Assembly (NCBI GenBank): GCA_003694635.1
Contig: RFKQ01000123.1
Span: 1-50,889, forward strand
Length of the DNA: 50,889 nt
Direction of reading: 5' to 3'
Source of the DNA: Planctomycetota bacterium
GTDB taxonomy: Bacteria > Planctomycetota > J132
The notes beneath the pieces were generated by a model, which worked only from the letters and a program-made list of their open reading frames with translations, ran no database searches and had not been told where the DNA came from. The translations under genes were made by a program, and so were the position numbers. Positions 1 to 44,747 of the stretch are shown here, in pieces; within the stretch, counting starts at the first letter, position 1; each line of letters starts with the position of its first letter.

Positions 1-116
1 CTCTAGAATTGGGTTTAAAGTGGAAGTCAAGGAGTGTCGATTTTCTAGGATAGAGATAGAAAAGTAGAAAGTATTTGTGCGGATAGAAATCTTAGAGCTC
101 TTGTGGAGATTCGGTT

Positions 117-458
117 ATGGGAAAAAGTGCAAAGATGCTTTTGATAGGAAATATGATGTTATTTCTTGTGCTTTTTATGTTAATGGAGCGGGATCGCTCT
201 CTTTACAATTTGCGGGATAAAAAAGTTTCTCCCCCGTCTTTCGAGGAAACCATTTTAGACTTCAGGCCTCCCTCTAGGCCGAAGCTTCGCTATTATCGAG
301 TGAGGCGTGGAGACACTTTTCCCAAAATCGCCCAAAGATGTTATGGAGATAAAAGGCTATGGCGGAAAATTTTTGAAGCAAACCGCCAAACTGTTCCTCA
401 TCAGGCGAAGTTGATCGCCGGACAGCTTCTCTACATTCCCCCGAAAGAATCATTTTGA
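117..458 (+). CDS. LysM domain protein with N-terminal membrane anchor
   Basis: 113-aa ORF. Hydrophobic N-terminus (LLIGNMMLFLVLFMLM). C-terminal LysM-like signature YYRVRRGDTFPKIAQRCYGD..WRKIFEANR..LIAGQLLYIP. TGA stop. Confidence 0.7.
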   Translation: MGKSAKMLLIGNMMLFLVLFMLMERDRSLYNLRDKKVSPPSFEETILDFRPPSRPKLRYYRVRRGDTFPKIAQRCYGDKRLWRKIFEANRQTVPHQAKLIAGQLLYIPPKESF

Positions 459-466
459 CAATGTAC

Positions 467-730
467 TTAACTTTGAGGAATTTTTTCCTTGGACAAGCCA
501 AGAATTTTGGTTAGAATTTTTTGACTTTGGCAGCCATTTTGGCTGTAGTAGTGAAACAATTGGAAGGACTTTTGGGTTTGCTGTTGAAGAAGTTTTAGGG
601 CTTCCAGCTCTTTTTGGCACTTTTTGCAGTTTTGGGTGTGTTGTTCAAATTTTTTCTTTTGCGTACCATTTAACTCTTGATCGAGGTACAGGGAATAGAT
701 CATCTTATCTTCTGGGCAGGCTACGAACAT
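467..730 (-). CDS. Putative zf-HC2 type anti-sigma factor-like protein
   Basis: 87-aa ORF with ATG start. Pattern C-x11-YLDQEL...H-x3-C-x2-C (HTQNCKKCQKEL) resembles the zf-HC2 anti-sigma zinc finger. No TM segment and no sigma factor gene nearby. Confidence 0.45.
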   Translation of the reverse strand: MFVACPEDKMIYSLYLDQELNGTQKKKFEQHTQNCKKCQKELEALKLLQQQTQKSFQLFHYYSQNGCQSQKILTKILGLSKEKIPQS

Positions 731-1062
731 TGGATATCACCTTTTTATATGAACTTGAAAAAACACGAAAACAATGATTATAAACTAAAATTTACCTATT
801 CATCGAACACTCTCTATTTTTTTGAGATTTTAGGACTTCTAAATTTGATCCCAAAATCTGCTGACAAAATAATTGGCTTCATTCCCTGCCTATCCTAGCT
901 CGATTGAATTCTCTGCGAACTCTGCCCTAAAAGAGGCCAAACCTTCTTTGCTATACACTGCCCCAAAGGAGTATTGATGATCTCCTAATTTAGTAAGTCG
1001 ATAATCTTCTAAAAAATTTTAAAGAAAAAGCTAAATTTTCAGAACTTTTTGTTATGATGAAC

Positions 1063-1350
1063 TCATTCCGTTTCAGATTCTGAGCTTGAAGTTTCCGCAC
1101 TCTTTTTATTCAGCTCTAGCGCATCCGTATACGCATCGTAAATACCATACGCCCAAATCAAGATAAATACAAGTTGATAGTAATGGAAACCCTTGAAATA
1201 AACAATACTAGCAATAAGAGCCACCCAAAATACAATAAAATAAAGTATACAATAAAAAATATCTTTTAAGTACGCATGTCCCAAACCTGGCACAATGGCT
1301 AGCAAAGCCGCCACTACTGGGCTCTTTTCCTGATCTAAATAATCGTCCAT
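1063..1350 (-). CDS. Small integral membrane protein (2-3 TM helices), unknown function
   Basis: 95-aa ORF with hydrophobic stretches (VVAALLAIVPGLGHAYL, ILYFIVFWVALIASIVYF, LVFILIWAYGIY) and an acidic Ser/Glu C-terminal tail. Confidence 0.5.
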   Translation of the reverse strand: MDDYLDQEKSPVVAALLAIVPGLGHAYLKDIFYCILYFIVFWVALIASIVYFKGFHYYQLVFILIWAYGIYDAYTDALELNKKSAETSSSESETE

Positions 1351-1470
1351 AGTACCTTACCTCCTTTAAAAGAAAATAAATTTCAAAAGAAAATCATTTA
1401 TAAAACTTCCGAGAAATCTCTTTTTCTAAATCATAGGAAAAAAAATCTATTTTTCAAGGAAATTTTTACC

Positions 1471-1497
1471 TAATAAAAAAGAGGCAAAAGTTGCCTC
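1471..1497 (-). terminator. Rho-independent terminator of the minus-strand metal operon
   Basis: Perfect 7-bp hairpin GAGGCAA-(3 nt)-TTGCCTC at 1481-1497. On the minus strand it is followed by TTTTTTATTA. It lies ~110 nt downstream of the 1606 stop. Confidence 0.6.
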
Positions 1498-1605
1498 CCT
1501 CTTATATAGGAGCGGTTTTTCATCTTTATCTGAAATTTGGTTTCATCCTCTTTGGAGTGGGTCGAAATATCCTCAAATAAGTTTGGCTATACTCGGATTT
1601 TAAAA

Positions 1606-2010
1606 CTAAAACTCGTAGGAAATCTCTTGCAAAGCCTTTTTTATCTCCCCTAAACAGCAACGACCCTGGGGATTTTTGGTCTTACAAGAACATTCTTTGG
1701 CTTTGATTTTAGCGGTAATTTCCTCAAGCACCGTGGTTTTACCCGTCTTTTGAATCTCGTTCTGAATTCTCTCCAGCGTATACCCAAAACAGTAGCACAA
1801 CCATCGAGATTTGGCTGAGCTTTCTTTCAGCCCTACTTTAACACGAAGGCCATTTTTCTCAATGGTCTCCTCCCCGCGAAAATACACCACCTCGCATCCC
1901 CGAGAAGGGCAAAAGGAAAAACCGGATAAACTTTTAAAATTTTTTTGCACCTCTATCTTCACCAGACTCTTTAGAGTGATTTCCGGGAACCCTCCTGCCC
2001 CTAAAGCCAC
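1606..2010 (-). CDS. CopZ-like / putative Fe-S-cluster-binding metallochaperone family protein; N-terminus apparently displaced into another frame
   Basis: Motifs FCPSRGCEVVYF, WLCYCFGYT, ECSCKTKNPQGRCCLGEI match the Cys-rich metallochaperone family found in metal-resistance operons. The expected N-terminal CPxCG motif (KPCPKCGFRGRRV) is encoded in a different frame from a GTG at 2053-2051. That GTG overlaps the upstream stop as GTGA and follows GGGAGGAAAAG. Confidence 0.6.
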   Translation of the reverse strand: MALGAGGFPEITLKSLVKIEVQKNFKSLSGFSFCPSRGCEVVYFRGEETIEKNGLRVKVGLKESSAKSRWLCYCFGYTLERIQNEIQKTGKTTVLEEITAKIKAKECSCKTKNPQGRCCLGEIKKALQEISYEF

Positions 2011-2049
2011 ATTTCGGGCAGGGTTTAACTGTGGGTATAGATGCGTTGT

Positions 2050-2712
2050 TCACTTTTCCTCCCTAGATGAGGGGTTGACAAATCTTTTCTTTTCAATAAA
2101 GAGTACTTTTGCCCGATAACCTCTTTTCTTTAACGCCTCCAACATTGCAGAAACAGAAGCCTTAGGAGCAGCGTAAACCAAAACCCGCTTTTTTTCAAAC
2201 TCCACCTCTACCCGCCGGATACCTTCTAGCTCTTCCAGAGCTTTTCTGACCCTTGGTGGTCATCCCACCGGTCAGGTCATGCCCTGCACCTCTAATAGAA
2301 TTTTAGAAAACTGCGAAGAAGAACTCCCTGCAGGCTGTGGAGAGCGATAAGCAACTTTCGTAGAAGAAGCAGGGGCGATAACCAAAGAGAAAAGGTAAGG
2401 GTAAGCAAGAAAAAAAATCACCACACATAGAGCAGTCCAGTGAAAAAAATAAAAGAGCTTCTTCCTTGACCTCTGAGATTCGCAACAATCCGTCTTTCTT
2501 CTATAAACCCAATAAAAACTAAATCCCACGCACACCAAAGCAAAAATTCCGAAGAAAAAACGATACTTCTCAAACCATCCCCCCAGAGCCATTCCACCTC
2601 CTCCTAAAAGAAGTAAAAGAGGTGGAAGCCAACAACAAGCTGAAGAGGCCAAAGCGCCTAAAACAGCTAAAAGAGAAAAGACGATGGATTTTCGTTTGGT
2701 ATCTTCTTTCAT
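2050..2712 (-). CDS. MerT-like transporter fused to a C-terminal MerP/HMA domain, with two in-frame TGA codons at the metal-binding Cys positions (candidate selenoprotein)
   Basis: The N-terminal 146 aa are colinear with MerT: TM1 LASSACCWLPPLLLL, loop Cys pair DCCES, three TM helices. The frame continues EVQGMT-TGA-PVG-TGA-PPRVRKALEELEGIRRVEVEFEKKRVLVYAAPKASVSAMLEALKKRGYRAKVL, a complete HMA fold with TGA (2272-2274, 2260-2262) where GMTCxxC cysteines are expected. A third TGA at 2050-2052 ends the domain. Confidence 0.55.
2228..2242 (-). other. Candidate bacterial SECIS-like hairpin
   Basis: On the mRNA strand: AGCUCU-GGA-AGAGCU, a perfect 6-bp stem with a G-containing apical loop. The loop starts ~23 nt after the second UGA and ~35 nt after the first. 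A second nested hairpin UGACC-GGUGG-GAUGA-CCACC-AAG-GGUCA (2274-2247) encloses both UGAs. Confidence 0.35.
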
Positions 2713-2791
2713 TTTTCCTCCCGTACTATAAAACTTTTTGTGTCAAATTAACGTTTATCTCAACATTTACCTTCGTCTCCGTATCTTCCTA

Positions 2792-3241
2792 TCACTTTTT
2801 TGCCTCCTTTGTCTCTGTCTCTGCCCTACTTCCTTCGCCTAAAGCGGCCAAAATAGGACAAGTACTGGTGGTCGAAGAAGTGCATTTCTCCAGCATAGCC
2901 TCCAAAGACTTTTTAAGCTCTTGCAACCGCTCTATTTTCTCCTCCAGTTCAGATATTTTCTTTCGAACCTCTTTTTGGACCGAAGAACAAAGATTCTCCG
3001 AATTGTCCCTCTTTTGCTCCAAGTCCGAAAGATAAAGAAAATACCCAATCTCACTCAAACTAAACCCCAATCTTTGAGCATTTTTGATAAATCGAACTCT
3101 TTCTAAGTCCCTTAGACTATATTTTCGATAGCCAGAAGAGGTCCGAATTGGAGAGGGCAAAAGCCCAATGCTCTCATAATATCGAATAGACGCTGGAGAA
3201 ATCCCCACGTATTTTGCCATCTTACCGATCGTGAATTCCAT
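2792..3241 (-). CDS. MerR/CueR-family heavy-metal-responsive transcriptional regulator
   Basis: N-terminal HTH IGKMAKYVGISPASIRYYESIGLL, SGYRKYSLRDLERVRFIKNAQRLGFSLSEI, a long coiled-coil helix, and C-terminal loop C-x7-C-P-I-L (CTSSTTSTCPILAAL) as in CueR. There is an additional Cys (NLCSS) near the start of the dimerisation helix, as in MerR/ZntR. Confidence 0.9.
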   Translation of the reverse strand: MEFTIGKMAKYVGISPASIRYYESIGLLPSPIRTSSGYRKYSLRDLERVRFIKNAQRLGFSLSEIGYFLYLSDLEQKRDNSENLCSSVQKEVRKKISELEEKIERLQELKKSLEAMLEKCTSSTTSTCPILAALGEGSRAETETKEAKK

Positions 3242-3293
3242 TTTTCTTCCTTCAATACCAAGAATTTTTGCTTATTCCTTCTTCCTCACTAAA

Positions 3294-3324
3294 AGTGTAA
3301 CCTTAAAGGCGACTACAAGGTCAA
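3294..3324 (-). promoter_or_regulatory. MerR-type promoter with 19-bp spacer and operator dyad
   Basis: Minus strand reads cTTGACC-TTGTAGTCGCCTTTAAGGT-TACACT: -35 TTGACC, 19-nt spacer, -10 TACACT. Dyad ACCTT-N12-AAGGT sits in the same register as the E. coli copA/CueR promoter as I remember it (TTGACCTTcc..ggAAGGTTtaacct). It lies ~53 nt upstream of the regulator ATG. Confidence 0.5.
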
Positions 3325-3511
3325 GGGATTTTTCCAAAATTTTCGAATACTTTAAAAATACTCCCCCAATTGCCCGAAAGAGACTTGCAATTAGGCTCCA
3401 CAGCTAGTAAAATAAATTTCTTGCTGCTCCGCTGTTTTTCATTTGAAAAAACACTGCCAAAAACTTGCTCAAAGTTGCCGAAATCCATAAAGGAACACCC
3501 GAACGGGAAAC

Positions 3512-3946
3512 ATGTCAAAACAAAAAGGAATGCAACAGCGGATTAAAATCTGGTTTATCGACGATTTTGAGGGAAATTTGCGCGCCTGGAAAAGGGGCTT
3601 TCCTCCCAAGATCGCTCAATCCTGCGAACTACGCACCTTCTTGCGCTGGAATACCCTCAAAAACGAACTGGAGCGCAATCGCCTTCCAGATATCCTTTTT
3701 CTCGACTACTTCTTAGCCGAAACCTACGGCAGCGATATCCTCCACTGGATGCAGCAAAACCTACGAGAACTCCCCGTCATCGTCGCCCACTCCAGCGTCC
3801 CCCAAGCCAACCAAAAAATGCTAGCTCTAGGCGCCCACTGCGCTTTGAAAAAATACCGGGGCGAAGAAATTTCTTCCCCCATCCAAGAGCACTTCCACGA
3901 TCTTGAAGATATCAAATTCCTTCTCAAATACAAAAAAATCCCCTAA
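3512..3946 (+). CDS. Single-domain response-regulator receiver-like protein
   Basis: 144 aa. IKIWFIDDFEGN (acidic pocket), PDILFLDYFL (putative phospho-acceptor Asp), PVIVAHSS and ALGAHCALKK fit a CheY-like receiver layout. Confidence 0.55.
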   Translation: MSKQKGMQQRIKIWFIDDFEGNLRAWKRGFPPKIAQSCELRTFLRWNTLKNELERNRLPDILFLDYFLAETYGSDILHWMQQNLRELPVIVAHSSVPQANQKMLALGAHCALKKYRGEEISSPIQEHFHDLEDIKFLLKYKKIP

Positions 3947-4024
3947 TCTAATCTTGACAACCCTCTACTTTGCAACAAAATTTTTTACTGAAAACCTTCC
4001 CTCAGCAAGAAACGGAAAAATCCC

Positions 4025-4993
4025 TTGAAATACCAACAAATCGTAGATCTCAATAAATATCAAATCGTACGGGAAATCGCCGTCGGCGGCATGGGAATTG
4101 TGTATGAAGCCATCCAACACGGAATTGAGGGGTTTCGAAAAACAGTGGCCCTTAAGATTATTCAAGAAGAATTCTCCAATGACGCAGAATTCGTGGAAAT
4201 GTTTATCGGAGAAGCTAAACTCGTCGCCGATCTTGTCCATCAAAATATCGTCCAAATCTATCAACTAGGCAAAATGGCCCACTCCTACTACATTGCCATG
4301 GAATACATCAATGGCGTGGATTTGAAAAAATTTATCGATCGGCACATTGAACTGAAACGCCAAGTTCCCCCCGATATCGCTGCCTTTATCATCAGCCGCA
4401 TCTGCCGCGGGCTGGAATATGCTCATAAAAAAAAAGATAGACAAGGCCGCCCCCTCAACGTCGTCCATCGCGATATCTCCCCCGCCAATATCATGCTCAC
4501 CTGGGAAGGGGTGGTCAAAATCACCGACTTCGGTGTGGCCAAAGCCGCCAACCTTATGCGGGATCGCGAAGGGGAAATCCTAATGGGCAAAGTCCGCTAT
4601 ATGTCGCCGGAACAAGCCAAATACCTCCCCACAGACGCCCGTTCCGATATCTTCTCCCTCGGCGTAGTTATGTATGAACTGCTCACTTCTCAGCCCCTTT
4701 TCGAAGCAAGCAATACACAAAAAACCATCCACAATATTGTCCACTCCTCTCCAATTCCCCTAGAAAATATCTGCCCCCATCTCGACCAAGAACTCATTGA
4801 TATAAATAAAAAAGCTCTCGAAAAAAACCCAAAAAAACGCTACCAAAGCGCCGGAAAAATGGGATATGACCTGGAGCATTATATGTATCATGACCGATTT
4901 GGCCCAACAAATGTAACCCTGGAAAAATATCTGCGAGAACTCTTCCCCGACGGAGATTACCAAACCCTCGACAGCTCCTTTGAAGCCAAATAA
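4025..4993 (+). CDS. Hanks-type Ser/Thr protein kinase (kinase domain only)
   Basis: GGMGIVYEA glycine loop, VALKII, HRDISPANIM catalytic loop, DFGVAK, YMSPEQ, DIFSLGVVMYELLT. Start is probably TTG at 4025; there is no in-frame ATG upstream of the glycine loop. Confidence 0.9.
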   Translation: MKYQQIVDLNKYQIVREIAVGGMGIVYEAIQHGIEGFRKTVALKIIQEEFSNDAEFVEMFIGEAKLVADLVHQNIVQIYQLGKMAHSYYIAMEYINGVDLKKFIDRHIELKRQVPPDIAAFIISRICRGLEYAHKKKDRQGRPLNVVHRDISPANIMLTWEGVVKITDFGVAKAANLMRDREGEILMGKVRYMSPEQAKYLPTDARSDIFSLGVVMYELLTSQPLFEASNTQKTIHNIVHSSPIPLENICPHLDQELIDINKKALEKNPKKRYQSAGKMGYDLEHYMYHDRFGPTNVTLEKYLRELFPDGDYQTLDSSFEAK

Positions 4994-10098: not shown

Positions 10099-12129
10099 CT
10101 AAAGCCAAAACGGAAACTGGCACCCTAGCCCTCCCTTCCAGCCCTGTTCAACCAAACGACCAATCTCCTCCCCCCTCAACAGCGGCGCCGGAAGAGAGGA
10201 AAAGCGCCTGATCCCCGATAAAAAACAAAAAGGAACCATCCCCCGCAACGCCCGCTCTATCCCCCCCTCCGACCTCAACCACAACGGCTGAGCAAGTGTC
10301 CCTCCATAAGGCGGGGTTTTGCTCACCCAAAACGCCTCCGTGTCGCTGATCCGAAACACCGCCCCCAACGGAGGCGATTCCACCCACCCGCGGCGAAGAG
10401 CATAAATCCTAGGCGCACCCTTGGTCATTAGCTCCAACAAATCCCCACCCCTTGGCCGAGCAAATTCCTCCCACTCCTGGCGCTCCTTCTGAGAAAGCCT
10501 CCCCCACACCTGCACAAAAATCCGCCTCTCCACCCAATTTCCCAAAAGAGCAGGCCAGCTCTCCCCTTCCTCCAACACCCCAAGCCGGTAGCCCAAAAAA
10601 ACCCCCTCATGGGAATACGCGCGCAAAAAATAACCCCGCCTCCCCTCCCATTCCGGAGAAAATACCCTCTGCAGCCCCACCACCACCTCCCCCACCTCGG
10701 ACTGAATCCGGAAAAGACTATGCCCCGTTCGCACCAAAATCGCCACCACCACATCCTGCAAACGCTCCCGACGGCGCAGCCCCGAAGGGTACACCCATAC
10801 GCAGGGAACACCGCCAGATTTTTGTAGCGTCAGATAGCGCAAACGAAGAAGGGCATTCCGCTGGGACAGAGGAGAAGAGCGAGGCAAAAAATAAAGAAAA
10901 ATATGACTATCTTCCCGCCTTTCCAAAAACGCCTCTAGCTTGGAAAAATCCGCCGTGTAAAGCTTCGTTTGAAAAGCTAGCACGGATTGGATCCCAAAGC
11001 TTTTCAACTCTTGCCGGAGATGATACAAAAAATTTTTTACAGAAAGCCTGGTAAAATGGACAATTCCTAAGCGAATTTCCTCAGAGAGAAAAGGACTCCG
11101 CCCGCAAATACCCGCCCGCTGAATGCAGCTGTACATTTCCGTCCCTCCCCACTCCACCTCCTCCCCCGTCGCTAGCCTTACCTTGCGGCCAAGCCCCAAC
11201 TCCTCTAAAGAAGGAAAGCAACTCGGATGGGTGTCGCTCCGGTAAGCGTCCGAAAGGTAGCCCCGAGCCTTCAAAAGAGCGGCAACCTTTCCAATAAGCT
11301 GAATCCGCAACCGCACCGGCATGGAAAGCGCTTTCCACGCCAGGGAGGACTTTAGGCCAAACCGCTCAAAGTCCCTCGGGCGCAGATGAATGTAAAGGGC
11401 ACCACTTGCGTAGTCGTAAGTGTAGCGCTCCGTCTGAATCTGGACCACCCATTGCTCCCCGCCAGCCCGCTCCAAAAAACGCTGCATCCAAGGCTCCTGC
11501 GAAAGGGAGATCAAACGCCTCCGATGATCCGATAAGCGCCCGATAACCTTGCCAACCCTTCCCTCCAAAAACGTATCCTTGGCCAACACCCCCAACCCCA
11601 CCAACCCCTGCAAGTCCGCAGAGGTTTGGCTAAATTCCCAAAGATCCAGCTTGTGAACCAAGTACGAGCGAATGGAGAGGGAAAGGGAGGGCCTACCCTC
11701 CACCACCCACGGGCGCAATTCGCACCAGCGCAACACCTTCGCCACCCCAAAACTCTGGCCTTGAGCCAAAAGTATCTTGGGAGTGAGCAAATCCTGCAAA
11801 ATCATCCCCCGACGCAGAAATTCCAAACGAGCCAGATCATCGCCCTGCCAATCGGGCAACAGCTCCAGGTTTTGCAAAGGGCTAAAAACCTCCCGCTGCC
11901 GCTGCCATAAACGCTCCAAAAACTCCCATTTTTGCGCCTCCTCCAGCCGATAATCGCTCAAAATCCACTCCCGATGCCATATCCAATGCCCCGTGGGAAA
12001 AGCCCGATGCAGCTCGTACAACAGCTTGCCAATCAGGGAAAAATCCCCCGCCTCCGCCACAGGACGATAGGCGTAAAGAGAAGGGAGCTTTTGAAAACTT
12101 ACCGGAAAAACCTCCGCCAATAGGCGCAT
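10099..12129 (-). CDS. Highly diverged long prokaryotic Argonaute-like protein, predicted catalytically inactive
   Basis: ~676 aa, similar to TtAgo at 685 aa. C-terminal blocks are colinear with the remembered TtAgo MID/PIWI sequence: GEVVVGLQRV vs AELAVGFDAG, RRIFVQVWGRLSQKE vs SRVLLLRDGRVPQDE, DLLELMTKGAPRIYALRRG vs DLVSVRKSGGGRVYPVQG, GTLAQPLWLRSE vs GTPRPLKLVHE, SSLPAPLLRGEEIGRLVEQG vs RLPAPLHLADRLVKEVGRLG. Hydrophobic C-terminus. ATG at 12129, two codons after a TTG at 12135. Confidence 0.55.
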   Translation of the reverse strand: MRLLAEVFPVSFQKLPSLYAYRPVAEAGDFSLIGKLLYELHRAFPTGHWIWHREWILSDYRLEEAQKWEFLERLWQRQREVFSPLQNLELLPDWQGDDLARLEFLRRGMILQDLLTPKILLAQGQSFGVAKVLRWCELRPWVVEGRPSLSLSIRSYLVHKLDLWEFSQTSADLQGLVGLGVLAKDTFLEGRVGKVIGRLSDHRRRLISLSQEPWMQRFLERAGGEQWVVQIQTERYTYDYASGALYIHLRPRDFERFGLKSSLAWKALSMPVRLRIQLIGKVAALLKARGYLSDAYRSDTHPSCFPSLEELGLGRKVRLATGEEVEWGGTEMYSCIQRAGICGRSPFLSEEIRLGIVHFTRLSVKNFLYHLRQELKSFGIQSVLAFQTKLYTADFSKLEAFLERREDSHIFLYFLPRSSPLSQRNALLRLRYLTLQKSGGVPCVWVYPSGLRRRERLQDVVVAILVRTGHSLFRIQSEVGEVVVGLQRVFSPEWEGRRGYFLRAYSHEGVFLGYRLGVLEEGESWPALLGNWVERRIFVQVWGRLSQKERQEWEEFARPRGGDLLELMTKGAPRIYALRRGWVESPPLGAVFRISDTEAFWVSKTPPYGGTLAQPLWLRSEGGIERALRGMVPFCFLSGIRRFSSLPAPLLRGEEIGRLVEQGWKGGLGCQFPFWL

Positions 12130-12306
12130 GATCAAAATTTTTCCTTCGGGCTATTGAATGAAACTGTGCCGGAGGAAACCTACTCGCTCCTGTCCAAAAA
12201 CCGTCAGTATAGCGTCGCTAAATCTGAACGAAATTCCTATTTTATGCAAATCAAGAGAGCATTCAAGAAAAAAACGATAATCTTTGTCCTTAAAGTCCTT
12301 AAACAA

Positions 12307-13080
12307 TCATTCCGCCCCCACTTGAGCGGAAATGGGAGGGAGGACAAATACCTCCGAAAAGTCCGTCAGCGAATGAAATGGCTCCACCTCCACTCGCAGA
12401 AATACCTTGGCCCGCCCTTGGACCGACTTCACCCGCCCCACAAGCGCCCCCGGCGGGAAACATCCCTCCCAACCAGTGGCCACCAGTACATCCCCCTCGC
12501 GGACATCGGCATCAAACTGCAAATGCTTGGAGACCAATTTCCCCACCGCCTCCCCCTGCAAAATAAACGTCTGCCGAGTTCGCCGGTTGCGCACAGAAAT
12601 CTTAAAACTCCCTAGCAAAGCCACTCTCGCAAGATGGGAATAGACCATCTCCACCCTTCCCACCACCTGCTTTCCCACTAAAACAGCAGAATGAAGGCGC
12701 ACCCCTTCCCTCTCTCCTGCCGAAATGTAGAGCTTTTTCTCAAACGGCGACGGGGAAAACACCCAAACCACCTGAGCCGAAATCACCTCCCGACGGGAAG
12801 AGAGCACCACCCTCAACTGCCGAAATTGCGCCAATATTTCCTTGAAACGAAGGATTTGAACCTGAAGCTGAGCCAATTTCTCAGAAGTGCCCTCCCCTCG
12901 TTTGGAAACAGACACACGAGGCAAATGCCTCCAAAACAAAGGGGAAATCCAACCATATACCCCCGCATATTTCAACAACAGCGGCGTAGCCAACAAAATA
13001 AAAAACAAAAGCACTCCCCAAATACGCCGATCAAGCATAACCCTAAGCCGCCTCCTCCATATCCTCCAATAAGCTCGCAT
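12307..13080 (-). CDS. mreC: Rod shape-determining protein MreC
   Basis: N-terminal TM, coiled-coil (LAQLQVQILRFKEILAQ), then beta-rich core ISAQVV..LYISAGEREGVRLHSAVLVGKQVVGRVEMV..ARVALL..REGDVLVATGWEGCFPPGALVGRVKSV. An alternative ATG at 13038 (MLDRRIW) would remove the 38-nt overlap with mreB. TGA stop. Confidence 0.85.
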   Translation of the reverse strand: MRAYWRIWRRRLRVMLDRRIWGVLLFFILLATPLLLKYAGVYGWISPLFWRHLPRVSVSKRGEGTSEKLAQLQVQILRFKEILAQFRQLRVVLSSRREVISAQVVWVFSPSPFEKKLYISAGEREGVRLHSAVLVGKQVVGRVEMVYSHLARVALLGSFKISVRNRRTRQTFILQGEAVGKLVSKHLQFDADVREGDVLVATGWEGCFPPGALVGRVKSVQGRAKVFLRVEVEPFHSLTDFSEVFVLPPISAQVGAE

Positions 13081-14092: not shown

Positions 14093-14478
14093 TTCATCTT
14101 CTGCTCTTAAATGAAAGCGCTTTTATGAGAATTGCTGAGGTGCATGTGTTTCCCTTCTTGAAAATGCGCTTGATTCAACAACATGTTGTGATAAAATAAT
14201 AAATAAAATGTTCTCTCCTCTCCACCACCGCATCTCTTCTCCTAAAAACAACCCCAAACAGGGGAGGTAAAGAAAAATCTTCTTCTTTCGTTCGTTAACC
14301 CTTCAGAATTTCCTATGAAGTTATCGTCCAAAAAAATAAAAAAGTTTATAAAAAACTCCATAAACCTTAAATTTTCTACCTAACCCGTGAAACGAAAAAA
14401 AGTAAAAAATGAATGGAAAAATGGAACAGAATCTTAAAACAAAGAATATCACCGCTCCGACCCAAGGGAGATATGCCA

Positions 14479-16422
14479 ATGGGACCAAACGCATATAATT
14501 TAAAGACATGCGGCTTTCTGCTAGCTGCTGGACTACTTTCCCTCCTCAGCGGCTGCTCCACCGCAGACTACCGGGAATTAACCCAATCCAAACTGAAAAC
14601 AAAAAAGAAAACCTACGCCTTCTCCACCCTTCAAAAAACCTCCCCCCTCTCCCTAAAAGTCGCCCTTATGCCCCTCAAAACCTCCTACCTAGACAAAGAA
14701 AAAGAGCGAAAAAAAATCGAAAAAAACAACCCCGAAATCCATACCGTCCAAATCGAAAAAAACAAATTCCTCCAGCGCATCCAATCAGTGCTGAAAAAAG
14801 CAAACGTCTTCCAAAGCGTGGATATAGCCCAACCCATCGACGAAGAAGAACTCCACATCAAAAATCCAACCGAACGAAGGAAAAAACTCCTAGAACTTTA
14901 CCTCACCCAAGCTTGGATGAAACAACAAGACCTCCTCCTTGAATTCGACTTGAAAGAGTACAAACTCGCTTACAAAGGCGTAAGCACATGGCGCTACATT
15001 TTTGCCATGTTTACGTGGTTCTACGTCTGGTTCCCCTCCTGGTGGATAGCGGATGAAAAATACGAAGCCCATATTATTCTTAAAACAAAAGTATATAGCG
15101 TTCATTCCAAAAAACTATTGGCTACGTATCGCATCGAAAAAAAACACCTCGACTACCTCGATGACTGGGACCGAGGCTGGAAAATTCTCGGAATCTGGAC
15201 CGTTCCCTCCTACCTCTCCAACTCCAACTGGGAAGATATCAACAACTGCACCGGCAAATATACCCTCAACCAGGTCTGGCTCGCACTCATCAAAAAGTTT
15301 AAAGTGGACTTCCGCCGCTATCTGCGAACTCCTGAATTTGAGGATAAAATGAAAAAAACCCTGGCGATTGTCATCGGCCTTTCCAAATACGAAGATACCG
15401 CCATCCCTAGCGGAGTGCAGTACGGAGCAAACGATGCGAGAAAACTCGCTCAGTTCCTCACCCCAAAAGTACGTCGCCTCCACCTCCTCGTGGACAGCCA
15501 GGCTAGCAAAGCGAAAATCGAGGAACTCCTCGAGAATTTTTTTGCCAAAAGAGTGCGTTCTTGGGACACGGTTGTGTTTTATTTCTCCGGATTTGGCGTC
15601 GCCCTACCCACTGACAAGAGGGACTACACGCTCTACCTCGTGCCCTACCGGGCAAAAGTAAACAACCTCGCCAATACGGCGATTCCTGTCCAAAAGCTGC
15701 TCCAAGCCATCACCGCCCTTCCCGCCAAGCACCACTGGATCTTTCTAGACACCTCCTTCGGGGGTACCAGCGAGGGAAAATCCCTCACCCGGGAAGTGCT
15801 AGGCATAGAGACGAAATGGAAGCGAGTGTCTTTTGACCAGCGGAACCAGTGGAAAAATCAATTTGCCCAGCAACTGGAGAAAGCCGCCCAAAAAACCTTT
15901 AGCTCCCTTGCAAATACCACCGTCCTCCTACCCTGCCACCCCGTCCAAGACTGCCTACAACTCCACGAAAACCAGCAGGGCCTGTTCAATTTTTTCCTTC
16001 TGAAATCGTTTTCAAAATACACCAAAGGACGCTCGATATCCTTTTTCGAAGCCTATCGGTATATGAAGCGAAAAATTCTTTCTCAGGCAAAACGGAGAAA
16101 CCGAAAAAAGCAAATTCTCCAACGCTTTTACAAAAAATTTATTTTCGATATGAATTATTCCCTAAAAAAAGACCTAAACTCTGGCAAGTGGACTCCATCC
16201 TTGCAAGAAGTGTTTCAACTCAACCAAATCTCCCTCCCGGCCAATATCATCGTGCGGGTTATCGAACCCAATCAGCGTTGGAGAATCCATAGCCCCGATA
16301 CCAACCAAGTGTTCATCATTCAAGCCAAAAAGGAAAACCTTCAAGTCTTTGAAGAGGTTCCACTCGCCCTTAGCTATGCCATTCCAACCCATTCCATCCA
16401 CCACTGCCCAAAGGGAGCCTAA
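14479..16422 (+). CDS. Lipoprotein with caspase-fold (Peptidase C14-like) domain lacking the catalytic His/Cys dyad
   Basis: GGGAG sits 8 nt before the ATG at 14479. Lipobox LLSGC. Caspase-like core LAIVIGLSKYEDTAIPSGVQYGANDARKLAQFL..VVFYFSGFGVAL..YLVPYRA..HHWIFLDTSFGG, where SGHG is SGFG (Phe codon 15592-15594) and D-x-C-H-S-G is DTSFGG (Ser codon 15754-15756). Confidence 0.6.
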   Translation: MGPNAYNLKTCGFLLAAGLLSLLSGCSTADYRELTQSKLKTKKKTYAFSTLQKTSPLSLKVALMPLKTSYLDKEKERKKIEKNNPEIHTVQIEKNKFLQRIQSVLKKANVFQSVDIAQPIDEEELHIKNPTERRKKLLELYLTQAWMKQQDLLLEFDLKEYKLAYKGVSTWRYIFAMFTWFYVWFPSWWIADEKYEAHIILKTKVYSVHSKKLLATYRIEKKHLDYLDDWDRGWKILGIWTVPSYLSNSNWEDINNCTGKYTLNQVWLALIKKFKVDFRRYLRTPEFEDKMKKTLAIVIGLSKYEDTAIPSGVQYGANDARKLAQFLTPKVRRLHLLVDSQASKAKIEELLENFFAKRVRSWDTVVFYFSGFGVALPTDKRDYTLYLVPYRAKVNNLANTAIPVQKLLQAITALPAKHHWIFLDTSFGGTSEGKSLTREVLGIETKWKRVSFDQRNQWKNQFAQQLEKAAQKTFSSLANTTVLLPCHPVQDCLQLHENQQGLFNFFLLKSFSKYTKGRSISFFEAYRYMKRKILSQAKRRNRKKQILQRFYKKFIFDMNYSLKKDLNSGKWTPSLQEVFQLNQISLPANIIVRVIEPNQRWRIHSPDTNQVFIIQAKKENLQVFEEVPLALSYAIPTHSIHHCPKGA

Positions 16423-16426
16423 AAAA

Positions 16427-19400
16427 ATGTCCAATAGAAAGAAATGGGAAACCTCCGTTGTCTCCAAGATCGCGCTGAGAAAAGGCATTATCGATCAAGA
16501 AACCCTCCAAGACTGCATTCTAGAATTAGAGATCAGTCCAGAAGACTCCTCCCTTTTAGAAATCCTAGAATCAAAAACCAATATCGATGCCAAAACCTTT
16601 AAAAACCTCAAGGCGATGGTGGATTTCGCCCTCTCCCAAGACAAAGATACCCAAGAGGATGTCCTTCTAGCGCAAATCCTAGTGGACGTCCAATTTCTCA
16701 CCCAAGGACAGCTGGAAAATGCCCTCCTCGAGCAAAAACGCCGCCTAAACCAAACCGGGAAGTCCCTAAAATTGGAGCATATCCTCGTGGAGAAGGGTTT
16801 CATCTCAGAAGAACGCCTGCAAAGCGTGCTACAAATGATGGCCAAAATCCCCCTGCAGTGCGAAGAATGCGGCACCAAATACGTTTGGGGAGATTTCCAC
16901 AACACCAACCACGCCCGATGCCAGAAATGCGACTTTGCCCTGGTCCCCTACCTGGAGGAGGAAATGGATGAGGCCGCCACCCTAGTGGCCGATGAAAGCG
17001 GTGTGCAAAATCCTCCAAGCCAGTCATCCATAGAGCAACAAGACACTTTGGCGGCCAATGAAACCGCTGCGGCAGACCAACCTCCCCACAAAGCAGTGAG
17101 AGCTTCCGAAGGAAATTCCACTCATTCCCCCGCAGGAACCGACTCCCACGATATCGGCAACCTCACCTCCGCAGAAACCTACGCCGGCAACAAAATCGAC
17201 ACAGGAGACCCAGCCGCACAGACCTCAGGAGGGCAAAAAGGGACCGATCCGTTCATCGGCCAAGTGCTCGGGGAGGTGAAGCTGATAAAAAAACTCGGCC
17301 AGGGCGGTATGGGAGCCGTCTACCTTGGCGAACACCTCCACCTCGCCAGACAAGAGGCCATCAAAATCCTCCCCAGAGAGTTCGCCAACAACCCCGAACA
17401 AGTCACCAGATTCAAGCGAGAAGCCCGCGCCGCCGGAACCCTGGACTCGCCTCACATTGTACGAGTGCACCACATTGGCGAACACAAAGGAATCCACTAT
17501 ATCTCCATGGAGTTTGTCAAAGGCTGTAGCCTGCAAGATATCGTCAACGAGAAGAAAAAACTCGACGCCAAGGAAGCCATTGAGTATATGAAACAGGCCG
17601 CCAAAGGGCTGATTGTAGCGCATAAAAAAGATATTGTCCATAGAGACATCAAGCCGGATAACCTTATGGTCACCGAAGAGGGAGTGGTCAAGGTAGCCGA
17701 CTTTGGCTTGGCCCGAAAAACCCAAGATACCATGGGAGTAACCCAATCCGGCTCCATTTTGGGCACCCCTTATTTTATGTCTCCCGAACAGTGCCGCGGT
17801 GAAAAAACCGATATCCGCTCAGATATCTACTCCCTCGGCGCTACCTTCTACTATATCCTCACAGGCCAGCATCCCTTTGTGGGCGATTCGCCCATGACCA
17901 TCCTGCTAAAACATATCCACGAGGAAGTGCCCGATATCAAAAAATTTGCCCCCGAGGTCCCCGATTCGCTCAAAAATATCATCGAAAAAATGATGGAAAA
18001 ACTCCCCGAAGATCGCTACCAGACCTTGGAGGAATTCCTCGAGGATATCAAAAAGCTCGAAGAGGGCGAGGAAATCGCCATGTCCGAGGGCAAGCGGCGG
18101 CGCATATTTCGCCGAAGGCTGCGCCGGGCTATCGCCTTTGCCCTCTTTGTGGCCGTGGTGGTCTTTCTCTTCTCTTACAAACCAGGCCAAAGCGAGGCGG
18201 AAATTCGACAAAAACTCTACCAAGAAAAACTCCAACAGGCCCAACAACTCCTTACCGCCGGGGACTTGGAAAACGCCATCGAACAATTCGAGGATGCTCG
18301 GAAGCAACAGAATACCTCAGAAATTCGCCACGCCCTGCTTAAGAGCTATACCCAACTCCTCAAAAATCTTCTAAAAAAAGCCGATCAACAGGCTCCCCAA
18401 CTTCCCAAAACCAAAGAGAAACTCGTTCAGCTTCTCCAACAGGCCAAATCTATCCTGAGAAAAGCCCAAAACATCAACCCCCAATTTGACCTCTCTTCCG
18501 AAGAAAAGCGCCTCTTTCAACACTACCTCCTTCTAGCACAACATCAAATCAAAAGCGCCCAAAAACTCTTTCCGCTCTTGAAAAAGAAAGGAGCGGAAAA
18601 AACAAGAAATCTTGCGCGCTTGCTGATCGAAGAAGCCAAGAAATACTTTCAAGAAGCCCGCTCCCTAAAGGGCGATAAACTTGCCCTCGCCCAATCCCAT
18701 CAAAAAATCTTCTCCCTATTTATCCCCCTCATCGCCTCTTTTTTGCAAGATGAAGACGCCAAAAACGCCCAATCCACCTTGAATCAAGCCAAAAAATTTT
18801 ATCCAGAGGGGCAAAAGACCCTAGAATCCTGGGAGGCGAAAATCCAACAGCTGGTCCTGCTCAAACAAGCTAGAGCCCTTCTTCTAAAAGCAGTCCGGTT
18901 TATCCAACCCAACATTTCCACCCTCTCCCCCTCCACCCTTCCCTCGATAAAAAACTCTCTTCCTAAGGTCTCCGAACTTCAACTCAACAACGCCGAAAAG
19001 TACGCCAACCAAGCCATCCTCAAATCCCCCAACTACTCCTTAGCTGCCAAAGTCCGAGCTATGCTTCGCTCAGAGCAGCAACGTAGGCTTGAACTGCGCA
19101 AACAGGAACAAGCGCGCTTGAAAAGAAAAGAAGAGACCACCAAAAAAGCAAAAGGCTACCTCAGCCTTCTCGAAGAAATCTCGAAAACACATACCCTGGC
19201 CCAATTTCCCCTCGAGAAAGCTCAGCTTGCCCTAAAACAACTCCAAACTCTAATCGCCGCCTATCAAAAAGATAAGTTTTTCCAAGAAGCCAAAAACCTA
19301 GAAAAAAACTATCTCTTTCACCAACATTACTTTGAAATCGCTCAAACATATCAAAACATCTTGGCCAAAATCCAAGAAAATTTCCTCGAGGACCGGGGAA

Positions 19401-20671
19401 AAAATCTAGGCGCCCTCTCCCTCTCCAAACAACTCCTCCAACAACTCAACCACAACCCCAAATACCAACCCTTTGCCAACTATATTCCCACCATCTCCAA
19501 AACTCTCCAAAGCATCCGAATGCGCCTATTTGATACATACAAGGAAAAAGCGGAAAAAATCAAACGCATCGACAAGGAAAAAGCCAAAATTTACGTCAAA
19601 AAAGCCCTGAGCTTCGTCCACGACGATCAATCCGTTATTGAACTACTTGCCGAACTCAATACCCCTGAAAATATGGTCTACATTCCCGCCGGAGAATACC
19701 AGCGCTTCTACGAAGACCTCCCTCCCAACACCACAACCCCCGAACAGTACTTTCGCCTAAACTCTAGCATCTATATGGGCAAATACGAAGTCACCAACCA
19801 AGAATATTTCCAATTTGTCAAAGCCGGTGGCTACAACAACCCAAAATTCTGGTCCCCCCAAGGCTGGGCCCTCTTTCACGGCAAAACCAAAATCTACAAA
19901 CCCTGGCCAGAAACTTGGCAAAACGGCAAATACCCCGCCGGCACTGAGCGTTTTCCCGTCTCGGGAATTAGTTACTGCGAAGCAGAAGCCTACTGCCGCT
20001 GGAAAAGCCTAACTCTACCCGGTACCCGACTTCCTACCCATTGGGAATGGGAAGCCGCGGCGGGATTCCTGCAGCAAAAAAACTATATCTTTAAGGCCAG
20101 CCTCGCCTATCTAAAAGAATTAGAAGCAAAAAAAATTTCCCTCAACTTCCTCAAACTCCTCTCGGAAAAATCCAACCTCGCCCTTCAAAACCTAACCGTG
20201 ACCAAATCCCCCCTAGCTCCCATCTGGTTCCTCGTGGATAAATCTAGAAATCTTCAGCTGCAAATCGTCCGCGAAAACCAAGGACTAAAAGTCTATAAAA
20301 TTGTCCACCGACGGGCCCAATATCCCTTACTAGGCGGGAAGTGGAAAGCGGACTTTGGCCAAATTATCACCCAATACGAAGCCCCTAGACCCGTGGGGAA
20401 ATGGCGGCTGGATGTAAGCTTAACCGGCTGCTATGATATGGCGGGCAACGTCTCCGAATGGGTGAAGCGTCCAGACCTTAGAAATAAAGAAGAGGCCTCG
20501 TTCAAAGGAGCATCCTTCGATTCCACCAATCCAAAAGTGCACGCTCACGTTACCTACAACGAATTTATCGCCTCAAAAAGCGACAGATTCGAAGATGTAG
20601 GCTTTCGAATCTGTGTGGACACAAGCACCTATTTGCAGAAAAAGGAGACCAAGCGTGCAAAAAAGAAGTAA
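16427..20671 (+). CDS. Giant multidomain Ser/Thr kinase: T2SSE_N/MshEN-like repeats, zinc ribbon, Hanks kinase, TM, long helical region, C-terminal FGE-sulfatase (SUMF1) domain
   Basis: ATG at 16427, 5 nt after the upstream stop. Kinase motifs GQGGMGAVYLG, HRDIKPDNLM, DFGLAR, SPEQ. TM IAFALFVAVVVFLFS. FGE motifs YMGKYEVTNQEYFQFVKAGGY, RFPVSGISYCEAEAYCRW, LPTHWEWE, GCYDMAGNVSEWV, KGASF. Confidence 0.9.
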   Translation: MSNRKKWETSVVSKIALRKGIIDQETLQDCILELEISPEDSSLLEILESKTNIDAKTFKNLKAMVDFALSQDKDTQEDVLLAQILVDVQFLTQGQLENALLEQKRRLNQTGKSLKLEHILVEKGFISEERLQSVLQMMAKIPLQCEECGTKYVWGDFHNTNHARCQKCDFALVPYLEEEMDEAATLVADESGVQNPPSQSSIEQQDTLAANETAAADQPPHKAVRASEGNSTHSPAGTDSHDIGNLTSAETYAGNKIDTGDPAAQTSGGQKGTDPFIGQVLGEVKLIKKLGQGGMGAVYLGEHLHLARQEAIKILPREFANNPEQVTRFKREARAAGTLDSPHIVRVHHIGEHKGIHYISMEFVKGCSLQDIVNEKKKLDAKEAIEYMKQAAKGLIVAHKKDIVHRDIKPDNLMVTEEGVVKVADFGLARKTQDTMGVTQSGSILGTPYFMSPEQCRGEKTDIRSDIYSLGATFYYILTGQHPFVGDSPMTILLKHIHEEVPDIKKFAPEVPDSLKNIIEKMMEKLPEDRYQTLEEFLEDIKKLEEGEEIAMSEGKRRRIFRRRLRRAIAFALFVAVVVFLFSYKPGQSEAEIRQKLYQEKLQQAQQLLTAGDLENAIEQFEDARKQQNTSEIRHALLKSYTQLLKNLLKKADQQAPQLPKTKEKLVQLLQQAKSILRKAQNINPQFDLSSEEKRLFQHYLLLAQHQIKSAQKLFPLLKKKGAEKTRNLARLLIEEAKKYFQEARSLKGDKLALAQSHQKIFSLFIPLIASFLQDEDAKNAQSTLNQAKKFYPEGQKTLESWEAKIQQLVLLKQARALLLKAVRFIQPNISTLSPSTLPSIKNSLPKVSELQLNNAEKYANQAILKSPNYSLAAKVRAMLRSEQQRRLELRKQEQARLKRKEETTKKAKGYLSLLEEISKTHTLAQFPLEKAQLALKQLQTLIAAYQKDKFFQEAKNLEKNYLFHQHYFEIAQTYQNILAKIQENFLEDRGKNLGALSLSKQLLQQLNHNPKYQPFANYIPTISKTLQSIRMRLFDTYKEKAEKIKRIDKEKAKIYVKKALSFVHDDQSVIELLAELNTPENMVYIPAGEYQRFYEDLPPNTTTPEQYFRLNSSIYMGKYEVTNQEYFQFVKAGGYNNPKFWSPQGWALFHGKTKIYKPWPETWQNGKYPAGTERFPVSGISYCEAEAYCRWKSLTLPGTRLPTHWEWEAAAGFLQQKNYIFKASLAYLKELEAKKISLNFLKLLSEKSNLALQNLTVTKSPLAPIWFLVDKSRNLQLQIVRENQGLKVYKIVHRRAQYPLLGGKWKADFGQIITQYEAPRPVGKWRLDVSLTGCYDMAGNVSEWVKRPDLRNKEEASFKGASFDSTNPKVHAHVTYNEFIASKSDRFEDVGFRICVDTSTYLQKKETKRAKKK

Positions 20672-38272: not shown

Positions 38273-39403
38273 TTAAGTACTTTTTTCCCGATTCAAACGG
38301 CGAATGGATGATAAAAACTCCTTCAATCCTACTTCTTTGTTTTTCAAAAACCAATCTAGGTCGGGATATTGGAATTTCCTTGGATCTTCCTCTGCGTAAA
38401 GAAGCATAGCCCGCAGTTGCTTTAACAGCTGAGAGTCATATTCGCCGCCTAGATGGTACTTTTCCTTCTCTTGCCGAATGCGGTCCCACTCCTCCTCTGT
38501 GATTGAGCCGGAGGTTTTAAAATCCCGATAGCGATCCTGACAGCGATAAAAATCCTCTCTCTTCGCCTCAAACTCCAGTGCCAAACTCCCCAAACCATAC
38601 GGTCGAGCTCCTCCAATTTTATGGTGTAGATCCCCGCTTAAAGTCAGCTCAGTTTTTTTCCCTTTTAGGCTTTGATCCGGACATTCCACCTTAACCTCTA
38701 TCCCCTTCTCCAGCTCCAGGCAATAGAGCAAAACCCCTAATTCCTCTAAGGTAAGATTGTAAAATGTAAGGGCAAAATCAAACTCCACCCCCGCTGGGAG
38801 ATATTTAATTTTTCTATTTAATTTTGAGTCCTCCTTAAAAGGAGCGTTGGTCCAAATATTAGGTTGATGGAAATAGAATTTGCGCCGCCGACGATCGGAG
38901 TAAAAAGCCTCGTGCTTGGGTTGAGGCGCCCCAGGACGAATGGTAAGCGTCCCTCTACTCGGTGTTTTTCCACTCTTTTGTCTCAAAACTAAATCCTGGA
39001 AAAATACCTTGCCAGGAAACACCACATTTTTTGAATTTTCATCCCTCTGGGCCATACCAAACATAGCGCAAGCCATGCACAGTTGCTTGTCCGATTTGCA
39101 AGCGTTTTTTACCCCATCTCCTGCTACCACGTTGCAGCCTTTTCCTACCACTTCCACAAGGTTGCGAAGCATTCCCTTAAAAGAGGTGGCGGGAATGGCA
39201 TCTACTTTGGTATCAGCTACCTTCGTTCTAAAAGTATTTCCATCTCTTCCCCCAACAAAGATTGGGGTAATGGCCCGGGCGATTCCCTGAATTTTTCCCC
39301 CAAATCCTTGGTACTTTTCGTGGGTTTGCGGCTCATAGCGACGAACCTCCTCCGTAGGGCCAATAAGCCGGTAAGGGTTCCAGAAGGCTTCATTTTTAGG
39401 CAT
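38273..39403 (-). CDS. Type III RAMP protein (Cas7-group, TIGR03986-like)
   Basis: N-terminal FWNPYRLI, IPATSFKGMLRNLVEVV (RAMP motif), CMACAMFG zinc-knuckle/FG motif, C-terminal glycine loop HKIGGARPYGLGSL. AGAGGAG RBS. Confidence 0.7.
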   Translation of the reverse strand: MPKNEAFWNPYRLIGPTEEVRRYEPQTHEKYQGFGGKIQGIARAITPIFVGGRDGNTFRTKVADTKVDAIPATSFKGMLRNLVEVVGKGCNVVAGDGVKNACKSDKQLCMACAMFGMAQRDENSKNVVFPGKVFFQDLVLRQKSGKTPSRGTLTIRPGAPQPKHEAFYSDRRRRKFYFHQPNIWTNAPFKEDSKLNRKIKYLPAGVEFDFALTFYNLTLEELGVLLYCLELEKGIEVKVECPDQSLKGKKTELTLSGDLHHKIGGARPYGLGSLALEFEAKREDFYRCQDRYRDFKTSGSITEEEWDRIRQEKEKYHLGGEYDSQLLKQLRAMLLYAEEDPRKFQYPDLDWFLKNKEVGLKEFLSSIRRLNREKST

Positions 39404-39497
39404 ATCGATTTTACTCCTCTTTCATGGGATTAGAAAAGTTATACTGCTAAGATGGGATAGAAAAAAAGATGTCCCGTCCGGTTAAGAAGAAGTGGAA

Positions 39498-40034
39498 TTA
39501 GGAATATCCGACCAAACTATGGTAGCGAAGAAACTGAACTTCATGAGCTTGATTGCACCACGCTTCCAGAACAAGTTTCACTCGCTTTGCCGGCGTCTCC
39601 AGCGGATAGAAAATCGGGCGGGGAAGGATGGATTCTAACCAGGCGCCGGCAAGGCTCAAATCTTGTTTGCCGGCGGATTCTCCTTCGGAAGAGGTGAGGG
39701 AGTTTCTCTCACCCCAAAGAATATGAGCTTTTTGTTGCGTGGTAAGTCCCACCAGATGGGAGGAATGGTCCGCATCCAGTAAGCTCCAATCTTCCTCACC
39801 AAGAAAAACAGTGCGAAACACACCATCGGGCAATTTGCGCCACCTCCACTCCCCCGAAGGGCAAAATACCCGCCCCCAACTGTGATCATCGGAAATCCTT
39901 TCCTTCTGGAAGAAGTCAAAACACAGTTCGCTAGGCGAGGTGAGTACCATCCAAGCTCCTGAGGGAGGAGCCAGTTGTTGAAGCTTTGCTCTCCAATTTT
40001 CGAGGGATAGATCCTCGGCTTTTAAAACGGCCAT
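39498..40034 (-). CDS. Type III-D accessory protein, tentatively Csx19-like
   Basis: 178-aa Trp-rich ORF with a strong RBS (AAAGGAGGACCAAATG). It sits between two RAMP genes, the position Csx19 takes in III-D operons. No motif that I can recognise. Confidence 0.35.
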   Translation of the reverse strand: MAVLKAEDLSLENWRAKLQQLAPPSGAWMVLTSPSELCFDFFQKERISDDHSWGRVFCPSGEWRWRKLPDGVFRTVFLGEEDWSLLDADHSSHLVGLTTQQKAHILWGERNSLTSSEGESAGKQDLSLAGAWLESILPRPIFYPLETPAKRVKLVLEAWCNQAHEVQFLRYHSLVGYS

Positions 40035-40061
40035 TTGGTCCTCCTTTCCAGCATCAACAGC

Positions 40062-41033: not shown

Positions 41034-41054
41034 AAAACTCTCCTTTCTAAGGAT

Positions 41055-41900: not shown

Positions 41901-41913
41901 CACTCCTTTCTGT

Positions 41914-42384: not shown

Positions 42385-42412
42385 TTTTTATCCTTCGCAA
42401 AAAGCCAACGTT

Positions 42413-43949: not shown

Positions 43950-43959
43950 AGTCAAGCTC

Positions 43960-44730: not shown

Positions 44731-44747
44731 ATTCCAGGCTCCTTTAT

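Follow-up and report, generated by a model that had tools for sequence, protein, structure and literature searches.

A gene on the minus strand of the window (the whole stretch of DNA analysed, an entire contig of 50,889 nt) very probably encodes a selenoprotein, in which a three-helix MerT-type transporter is joined to a C-terminal MerP-like HMA domain and both ligands of the metal-binding loop are predicted to be selenocysteine (GMT-U-PVG-U-P). The selenocysteine reading is well supported, because the TGA codons are conserved in divergent relatives and Cys occupies the same sites in others. A double-selenocysteine metal transporter had been put forward in an earlier note made from the DNA letters, and the divergent homologues that keep TGA now lend support to this idea. 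The gene and its parts are as follows.

2050..2712, minus strand: recoded ORF with MerT, linker and HMA and two in-frame TGAs (sequence, Pfam)
2383..2679, minus strand: MerT transmembrane domain, aa 12-110 (PF02411, homologues)
2116..2295, minus strand: HMA (MerP/CopZ-like) domain, aa 140-199 (PF00403)
2272..2274, minus strand: UGA1, predicted Sec147, aligned with the first Cys of GMTCxxC or GMTCx3C
2260..2262, minus strand: UGA2, predicted Sec151, aligned with the second Cys

The single frame runs from the ATG at 2712 to the terminal TGA at 2052..2050, i.e., 220 codons and the stop, and reads MKEDTK...SACCWLPP...TDCCES...ILLEVQGMT-TGA-PVG-TGA-PPRVRKALEELEGIRRVEVEF...GYRAKVL...REEK-TGA on the minus strand (2712..2050), PPRVRKAL being the first residues after the second TGA. 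An SD-like GGGAGG is found 5′ of the ATG, and the terminal TGA overlaps the GTG start of the downstream zf_CopZ/BFD gene (GTGA). With Cys written at both TGAs, the Pfam MerT model (PF02411) gave 33.9 bits, marginally above its cut-off of 32.9, and the HMA model (PF00403) gave 33.2 bits for a gathering threshold of 24.8, bearing out the initial observation that the same frame continues past the TGAs as a full HMA domain. Pfam and the alignment with Cys homologues also place the TGAs at both metal-binding Cys positions of the MerT-fused HMA, as first noticed. The canonical GMTCxxC loop is absent from this domain, with three residues (PVG) rather than two between the ligand positions. All other Cys of the gene are encoded by TGT or TGC. 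The MerT domain keeps the CC pair of TM1 (SACCWLPP), and its second CC pair (TDCCES) lies in the positively charged TM2-TM3 loop (RRKTDCCESQRSRKK). In the full-length product of about 24 kDa, the HMA domain comes after the third TM helix of MerT. Since the N-terminus and the TM2-TM3 loop carry the positive charges, this domain is predicted to be periplasmic, as are MerP and the HMA of MerTP fusions. The lipoprotein signals carried by most stand-alone relatives are consistent with this placement.

We compared the window with an independent Logan assembly of SRR7905022 (locus L021), which matches positions 1..4417 (4.4 kb) with 99.95% identity and contains both TGAs. The window is a metagenome-assembled contig, and the two assemblies do differ at two other sites, as one might expect if both TGAs were sequencing or assembly errors. 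That explanation is nevertheless barely conceivable: assembly error is excluded for both TGAs because the independent contig has them, and homologues from unrelated samples have them as well.

We also determined how TGA is used in the rest of the window. The 35 plausible genes end in TAA (22), TAG (8) or TGA (5), the last set being the LysM, small membrane protein, MerR and MreC genes and the recoded MerT-HMA gene itself. The only in-frame TGAs across these genes are the two in the MerT-HMA gene, and no interruption occurs in ORFs as long as 1,497 codons. TGA is thus an ordinary though infrequent stop that is not reassigned genome-wide, and on this point the earlier note, which had taken TGA as a genuine stop elsewhere and global reassignment as unlikely, was right. 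The five genes ended by TGA are confined to the first 13.1 kb of the contig, and all but one to its first 3.3 kb; the G+C content of the contig is 47.5%.

The contig is placed in the Planctomycetota by its RecA sequence, for which all named top matches are Planctomycetota MAGs, the best with 80% identity. Complete sets of Sec-insertion genes have been reported in several Planctomycetes (PMC4807772). No match to selA, selB or selD was obtained among the scanned ORFs of the 50.9-kb contig, and tRNA scans revealed no tRNA in the window and no tRNA-Sec in the window or 18 related loci. The Sec machinery is thus not demonstrated in the organism from which the contig comes, which leaves some room for read-through of the UGAs by a near-cognate Trp or Cys tRNA, or under a lineage-specific reassignment of the code. 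We consider read-through of this kind very unlikely, given the stop usage described above and the TGT or TGC codons used for the other Cys of the same gene. In addition, metal binding would be lost with Trp at both ligand positions, and TGA selected specifically at Cys-equivalent sites is the signature of selenocysteine.

Searches for relatives provided the main evidence for selenocysteine. Approximately 25 genes from metagenomes or MAGs have retained one or both TGAs and then continue in an intact HMA frame, with the motif U-[PA]-[VLI]-[GN]-[U/C]-P; the UGA2 position is Cys in some of them (U-x3-C forms), and some have only about 40% amino acid identity to the window protein. The first protein search returned MerT-HMA fusions with Cys (GMTC-xG-C) together with a 145-aa protein, P0005, ending at GMT. 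The corresponding DNA (L001) reads IEGMT-TGA-PVG-TGA-PSRVKKAL, with about 40% overall identity to the window protein, and the gene order MerR, Trx-like, MerT-HMA and zf_CopZ provides a context as in the window. An exact DNA-pattern scan of metagenome contigs for GGNATGACNTGACCNGTNGGNTGACC, which is conditioned on TGA, yielded 17 loci. In 17/17 the pattern is in frame inside an HMA domain, with about 65 aa of uninterrupted frame after it. Their architectures are the following.

Most of the 17 loci: signal-peptide or lipoprotein N-terminus with one HMA
L015: MerT-HMA
L014: zf_CopZ-BFD-MerT-HMA
L017: zf_CopZ-MerT-HMA(Cys)-HMA(Sec)

The single ORF of L017 (reverse-complement 490..2139) comprises zf_CopZ, BFD, MerT, a Cys-type HMA (GMTCEGC) and a Sec-type HMA (GMT-U-PVG-U), so both loop types occur side by side in one protein.

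As the pattern scan presupposed TGA, protein-based searches were added. We searched 1.84 billion representative proteins with a profile of the MerT portion. Of the 150 best matches, 113 carry an HMA with Cys (CxxC), 28 lack an HMA and 6 terminate precisely at ...GMT; the DNA of four of these last proteins showed U-PLG-U (L024, an NCBI MAG), U-PIG-C (L026), U-AVG-U (L029) and U-PVG-U (L030). A search with a profile of the Sec-type HMA domain gave Cys homologues with the x3 spacing (GMTCPVGCPPR, GMTCPVGCAPK, GMTCPVECPPK, GMTCDKGCPPR and GMSCAKGCAPR). It also matched 58-aa gene-caller fragments (MGCPAGVRKAL...), which proved to be the lipoproteins L022 (U-PVG-C) and L023 (U-PVN-C). Six TGA loci (L022, L023, L024, L026, L029 and L030) were therefore reached by searches that were not conditioned on TGA. 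A profile built from a two-sequence alignment and run against genome contigs found only two Cys-type Planctomycetota loci, the window's own genome not being among the matches.

More distant MerT-HMA fusions have GMTCxxC, and alignment with classical MerP (GMTCPV-CPITVRKAL) indicates that the loop of the family is the CPVCP of MerP plus one Gly. The extra residue is a trait of the subfamily and not a peculiarity of the Sec forms, because the Cys homologues share the C-x3-C spacing. The three residues between the TGAs described in the earlier note are thus confirmed, but the U-x3-U spacing is not Sec-specific and is common to the Cx3C/Ux3U subfamily. The mixture of C-x3-C, U-x3-C and U-x3-U members is the classic pattern of Sec/Cys exchange at the sequence level, which the same note had proposed from the codons of the window.

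The relatives were also checked for decay of the HMA part, which could be the remnant of a pseudogenised MerTP fusion with both Cys codons mutated to stops. TGC or TGT becomes TGA by a single-base change, and the adjoining zf_CopZ gene is frameshifted in the window assembly, as would suit such a remnant. Against this, more than 20 independent sequences of varied architectures and G+C content have TGA at these very sites, and their HMA frames are intact, with no further stops or frameshifts. The HMA of the window itself still scores above the Pfam gathering threshold. Decay is thus contradicted by the comparison and is a most improbable explanation.

Another possibility is that translation mostly or always stops at UGA1, the functional product being a stand-alone MerT of 146 aa and the HMA being made rarely or never. 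This product contains the entire MerT domain and is what gene callers annotate. Sec insertion is generally inefficient, at 30-40% per UGA in E. coli (PMC4513850), and two serial UGAs would compound the loss. We nevertheless regard it as unlikely that the HMA goes unused, since the protein sequence encoded past the TGAs is conserved among relatives with about 40% identity, and no usable start codon follows UGA2. Moreover, a stop at UGA1 would reduce the lipoprotein-type relatives to a signal peptide and a linker, and selection in those genes must therefore favour read-through. The entries found for family members at NCBI and JGI are truncated fragments of 58 or about 150 aa.

One lipoprotein gene has an additional TGA. 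In L008 (reverse-complement 11196..12314), the HMA (U-PVG-U) is followed by a PDZ domain and by ...LVGLSGADT-TGA-RPTTRF..., with about 80 aa more in frame, and this third in-frame TGA may specify another Sec, with which a further C-terminal region, so far uncharacterised, would begin. Compared with the Trx7/PDZ selenoprotein model NF041199, the region scored 34 bits for a cut-off of 300, and membership of that family was not established.

We then looked for RNA structures that might direct selenocysteine insertion. Two hairpins are predicted in the window.

2228..2242, minus strand: candidate SECIS hairpin AGCUCU-GGA-AGAGCU, 6-bp stem and GGA loop (folding, bSECIS model)
2247..2274, minus strand: nested hairpin enclosing both UGAs, CUGACC/GGUCAG around GGUGG-GAUGA-CCACC (folding)

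The bacterial SECIS model describes a stem of 4-16 bp, a loop of 3-9 nt with a G in one of its first two positions, a UGA-to-loop distance of 16-37 nt and an MFE of at most -7.5 kcal/mol (PMC13188914). The candidate hairpin falls within all these limits for both UGAs: its loop starts 35 nt past UGA1 and 23 nt past UGA2, and the MFE of the region is -21.5 kcal/mol, that of the hairpin itself being -5.7 kcal/mol. A hairpin compliant with the model was present in 23/23 of the Sec-type genes tested, at a spacing of 25 nt in the lipoprotein group and 34-35 nt in the group of the window.

In the lipoprotein class, the RVxxAL codons make up the first hairpin (H1), whose loop lies 25 nt past UGA1. Across this class, 94.6% of cells are paired, compared with 25-42% with slid partners, and three pairs show compensatory change. 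A second hairpin (H2), CCUUACC-GUG-GGUAAGG, is found approximately 20 nt beyond the first. The assignment of H1 to UGA1 and H2 to UGA2 was not adopted; the single-Sec genes L022 and L023 retain both hairpins. The class of the window has a single hairpin 34-35 nt from UGA1 (GCCCU-GGA-AGGGC, AAGCCC-UGUAU-GGGCUU or GGCCUU-GGUC-AAGGUC). Compensatory changes occur at 3/6 of its stem positions, even though the 3′ strand codes for non-conserved residues (EEL, YGL, EGL, VRA and VKV).

Shuffling of synonymous codons gave a modest signal for the window (z = -1.5, p = 0.08) and no excess structure for four relatives of its hairpin group; the test therefore does not count among the main evidence. Of all the TGA triplets of the window, 6.7% are accompanied by a model-fitting hairpin of at most -5 kcal/mol. 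Partial hairpins also persist in two of the four Cys controls, and the amino acid sequence may thus account for some of the pairing. The hairpin described in the earlier note at 35 and 23 nt is thus consistent with a SECIS and conserved in position, but alone it is weak evidence and not proof. The nested hairpin of that note does fold in the window but is not kept in register among the relatives; it appears to be largely a product of the complementarity of Pro and Gly codons (CCN/GGN), and its function is doubtful. No relevant Rfam family was detected, either at gathering thresholds over the whole window or at E values up to 10 in 2100-2400.

The genes on both sides of the MerT-HMA gene are on the same strand.

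2792..3241, minus strand: MerR-family metal-sensing regulator, directly upstream (CueR and MerR models, sequence)
1606..2053, minus strand: zf_CopZ and BFD-like [2Fe-2S] metallochaperone gene, downstream (NF047645 CopZ_Nterm_CC; profile)

The regulator scores about equally with the CueR, MerR and ZntR models, all below cut-off (CueR 115 bits, MerR 109 bits). It has Cys85, Cys120 and Cys128; we take the distance of 35 residues between Cys85 and Cys120 to match MerR numbering, and its C-x7-C-P-I-L tail presumably resembles that of CueR. The TGA stop of its gene directly abuts another stop. The zf_CopZ/BFD gene is split in the window by a frameshift (1934..2053 and 1606..2010) near 1987, where the window has CCC and L021 has CC. 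In L021 the gene is intact and encodes 148 aa; the frameshift reflects strain variation or a pseudogene, unless it is a homopolymer error of the window assembly. In relatives, the zf_CopZ domain is fused to the N-terminus of MerT. No mercuric reductase (MerA) was matched among the scanned ORFs of the window, and scans for sigma-70 promoters and terminators around the operon found sites no more frequently than in shuffled sequence.

The regulators differ by locus, being of MerR type in the window and of the CsoR family in L030 (600..902), where the repressor lies with a CMD/AhpD-like gene. A small Thioredoxin_3 gene is located just upstream of MerT-HMA in L001 (555..809) and L029 (293..550), and a glutaredoxin gene just downstream in L024 (3192..3383) and L026 (820..1011). 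These thioredoxin and glutaredoxin partners hint at a dedicated reductant for the Sec/Cys pairs.

The domains suggest how the system might work. SelB with Sec-tRNA(Sec) would be recruited by the hairpin at 2242..2228, which may serve both UGAs, as it is within the permitted 16-37 nt of each. We know of no experimental demonstration of one bacterial SECIS decoding two UGAs 12 nt apart. The relay of metal from MerP to MerT is known, and by analogy the diselenolate site facing the periplasm would capture a soft, thiophilic metal ion, Hg(II) or Cu(I). The ion would then pass to the CC pair of TM1 and next to the cytoplasmic CC loop of MerT, to be received by the zf_CopZ/[2Fe-2S] protein made from the translationally coupled downstream gene, with the adjacent MerR-family sensor probably controlling the operon. 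As a stop at UGA1 still gives a complete MerT, one may speculate that the selenium supply sets the ratio of MerT to MerT-HMA.

To our knowledge, few transporters or metal chaperones with selenocysteine are known, and none of the predicted ones has been studied experimentally. The two-Sec MerT-HMA gene is a subfamily within the known HMA/MerT selenoproteins and not a new principle. Neither the window protein nor any of five relatives reaches the cut-offs of the related selenoprotein models, and we found no curated family model or paper describing a two-Sec MerT-HMA arrangement. In the literature, no paper mentioning UxxxU or UPVGU was found.

A protein of the NF041115 type is listed as a 'putative mercuric reductase' with UxxU and two Sec (PMC9312934, PMC13188914). 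Like the window gene, NF041115 (UxxU_metal_bind) describes a small HMA-type domain with Sec in place of both metal-ligating Cys. However, its spacing is U-x2-U, whereas that of the window is U-x3-U with a conserved [PA]-[VLI]-G insert, and the Ux3U domains, unlike NF041115, are fused to MerT or occur on lipoproteins. The window domain reaches 56.2 bits and the best relative 69 bits with this model, for a cut-off of 95. The UxxU 'putative mercuric reductase' entry reportedly stems from Zhang and Gladyshev in 2007.

NF045683, a 'MerT/CopZ fusion-like heavy metal transport selenoprotein', shares with the window a Sec-containing MerT-type transporter with a fused or related CopZ/HMA domain; the window scores 60.8 bits and its relatives at most 74, for a cut-off of 375. 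The MerT-family selenoproteins of the literature have CU or C/SxxU motifs with one Sec (Haft & Gwadz preprint, 10.1101/2022.07.06.499078), whereas in the window the Cys pairs of MerT stay Cys and both Sec are in the HMA loop. Sec-containing P-type ATPases are also among the related selenoproteins catalogued in reviews and NCBIfam.

MerTP fusions (NF033556) and MerP-MerT pairs have the same order of MerT then MerP-like HMA, and the TM1 CC and cytoplasmic Cys pairs are kept in the window, which scores 79.4 bits with NF033556 for a cut-off of 180. It differs from MerTP and mer operons by Sec in place of Cys, one extra loop residue, the lack of merA or other mer genes among the scanned ORFs of the window, and a zf_CopZ/[2Fe-2S] protein as partner. 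The direct Cys counterparts are Cx3C periplasmic HMA lipoproteins (P0013 and P0017; GMTCPVGCPPR), with the same spacing, flanks and predicted fold, but with Cys at both positions and mostly stand-alone rather than fused to MerT. The P0013 model has an HMA fold (beta-alpha-beta-beta-alpha-beta) at a domain pLDDT above 90, and its second ligand is where helix 1 begins. The best PDB matches include MerP (1osd, 1afi) as well as metal-binding domains of CopZ type and of P-type ATPases.

A broader interpretation is plausible but tentative, and we lean slightly against it. The U-[PA]-[VLI]-G-[U/C]-P HMA domains might form a distinct, uncatalogued selenoprotein family, seemingly centred on the Planctomycetota, that presents a periplasmic diselenolate site on lipoproteins or MerT. 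Its two UGAs, 12 nt apart, would be decoded via one hairpin, as in the window type, or via two in tandem, as in the lipoprotein type, and the selenium supply would select between MerT and a Sec-armed MerT-HMA.

A conserved Sec pair in an extracytoplasmic HMA loop offers a way to test what selenium gains in the capture of Hg or Cu (affinity, exchange kinetics and resistance to oxidation), for which the natural Cx3C and Ux3C variants are usable as controls for Ux3U. With its UGAs 12 nt apart and only one or two small hairpins, the family is likewise a compact natural system to study the spacing tolerance of bacterial SECIS elements. Gene callers now split or truncate all these genes, and a curated profile would correct their annotation in many MAGs.

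Elsewhere in the window, positions 14413..16422 (plus strand) encode a 669-aa protein between mreB and a large kinase gene, with a weak, below-cut-off match to a caspase-like model (EACC1-associated type). The kinase (16349..20671, plus strand) is a Ser/Thr kinase of 1,440 aa with an N-terminal MshE-like c-di-GMP-binding motif just below cut-off and, in its C-terminal region, EgtB/SenA/OvoA matches well below cut-offs, an unusual combination. A type III-D-like CRISPR-Cas effector module is found at 38273..46508 (minus strand), with a Cas10/Cmr2-like protein, Csx10, three Csx7 RAMPs, Csx19 and a TIGR03986 RAMP.
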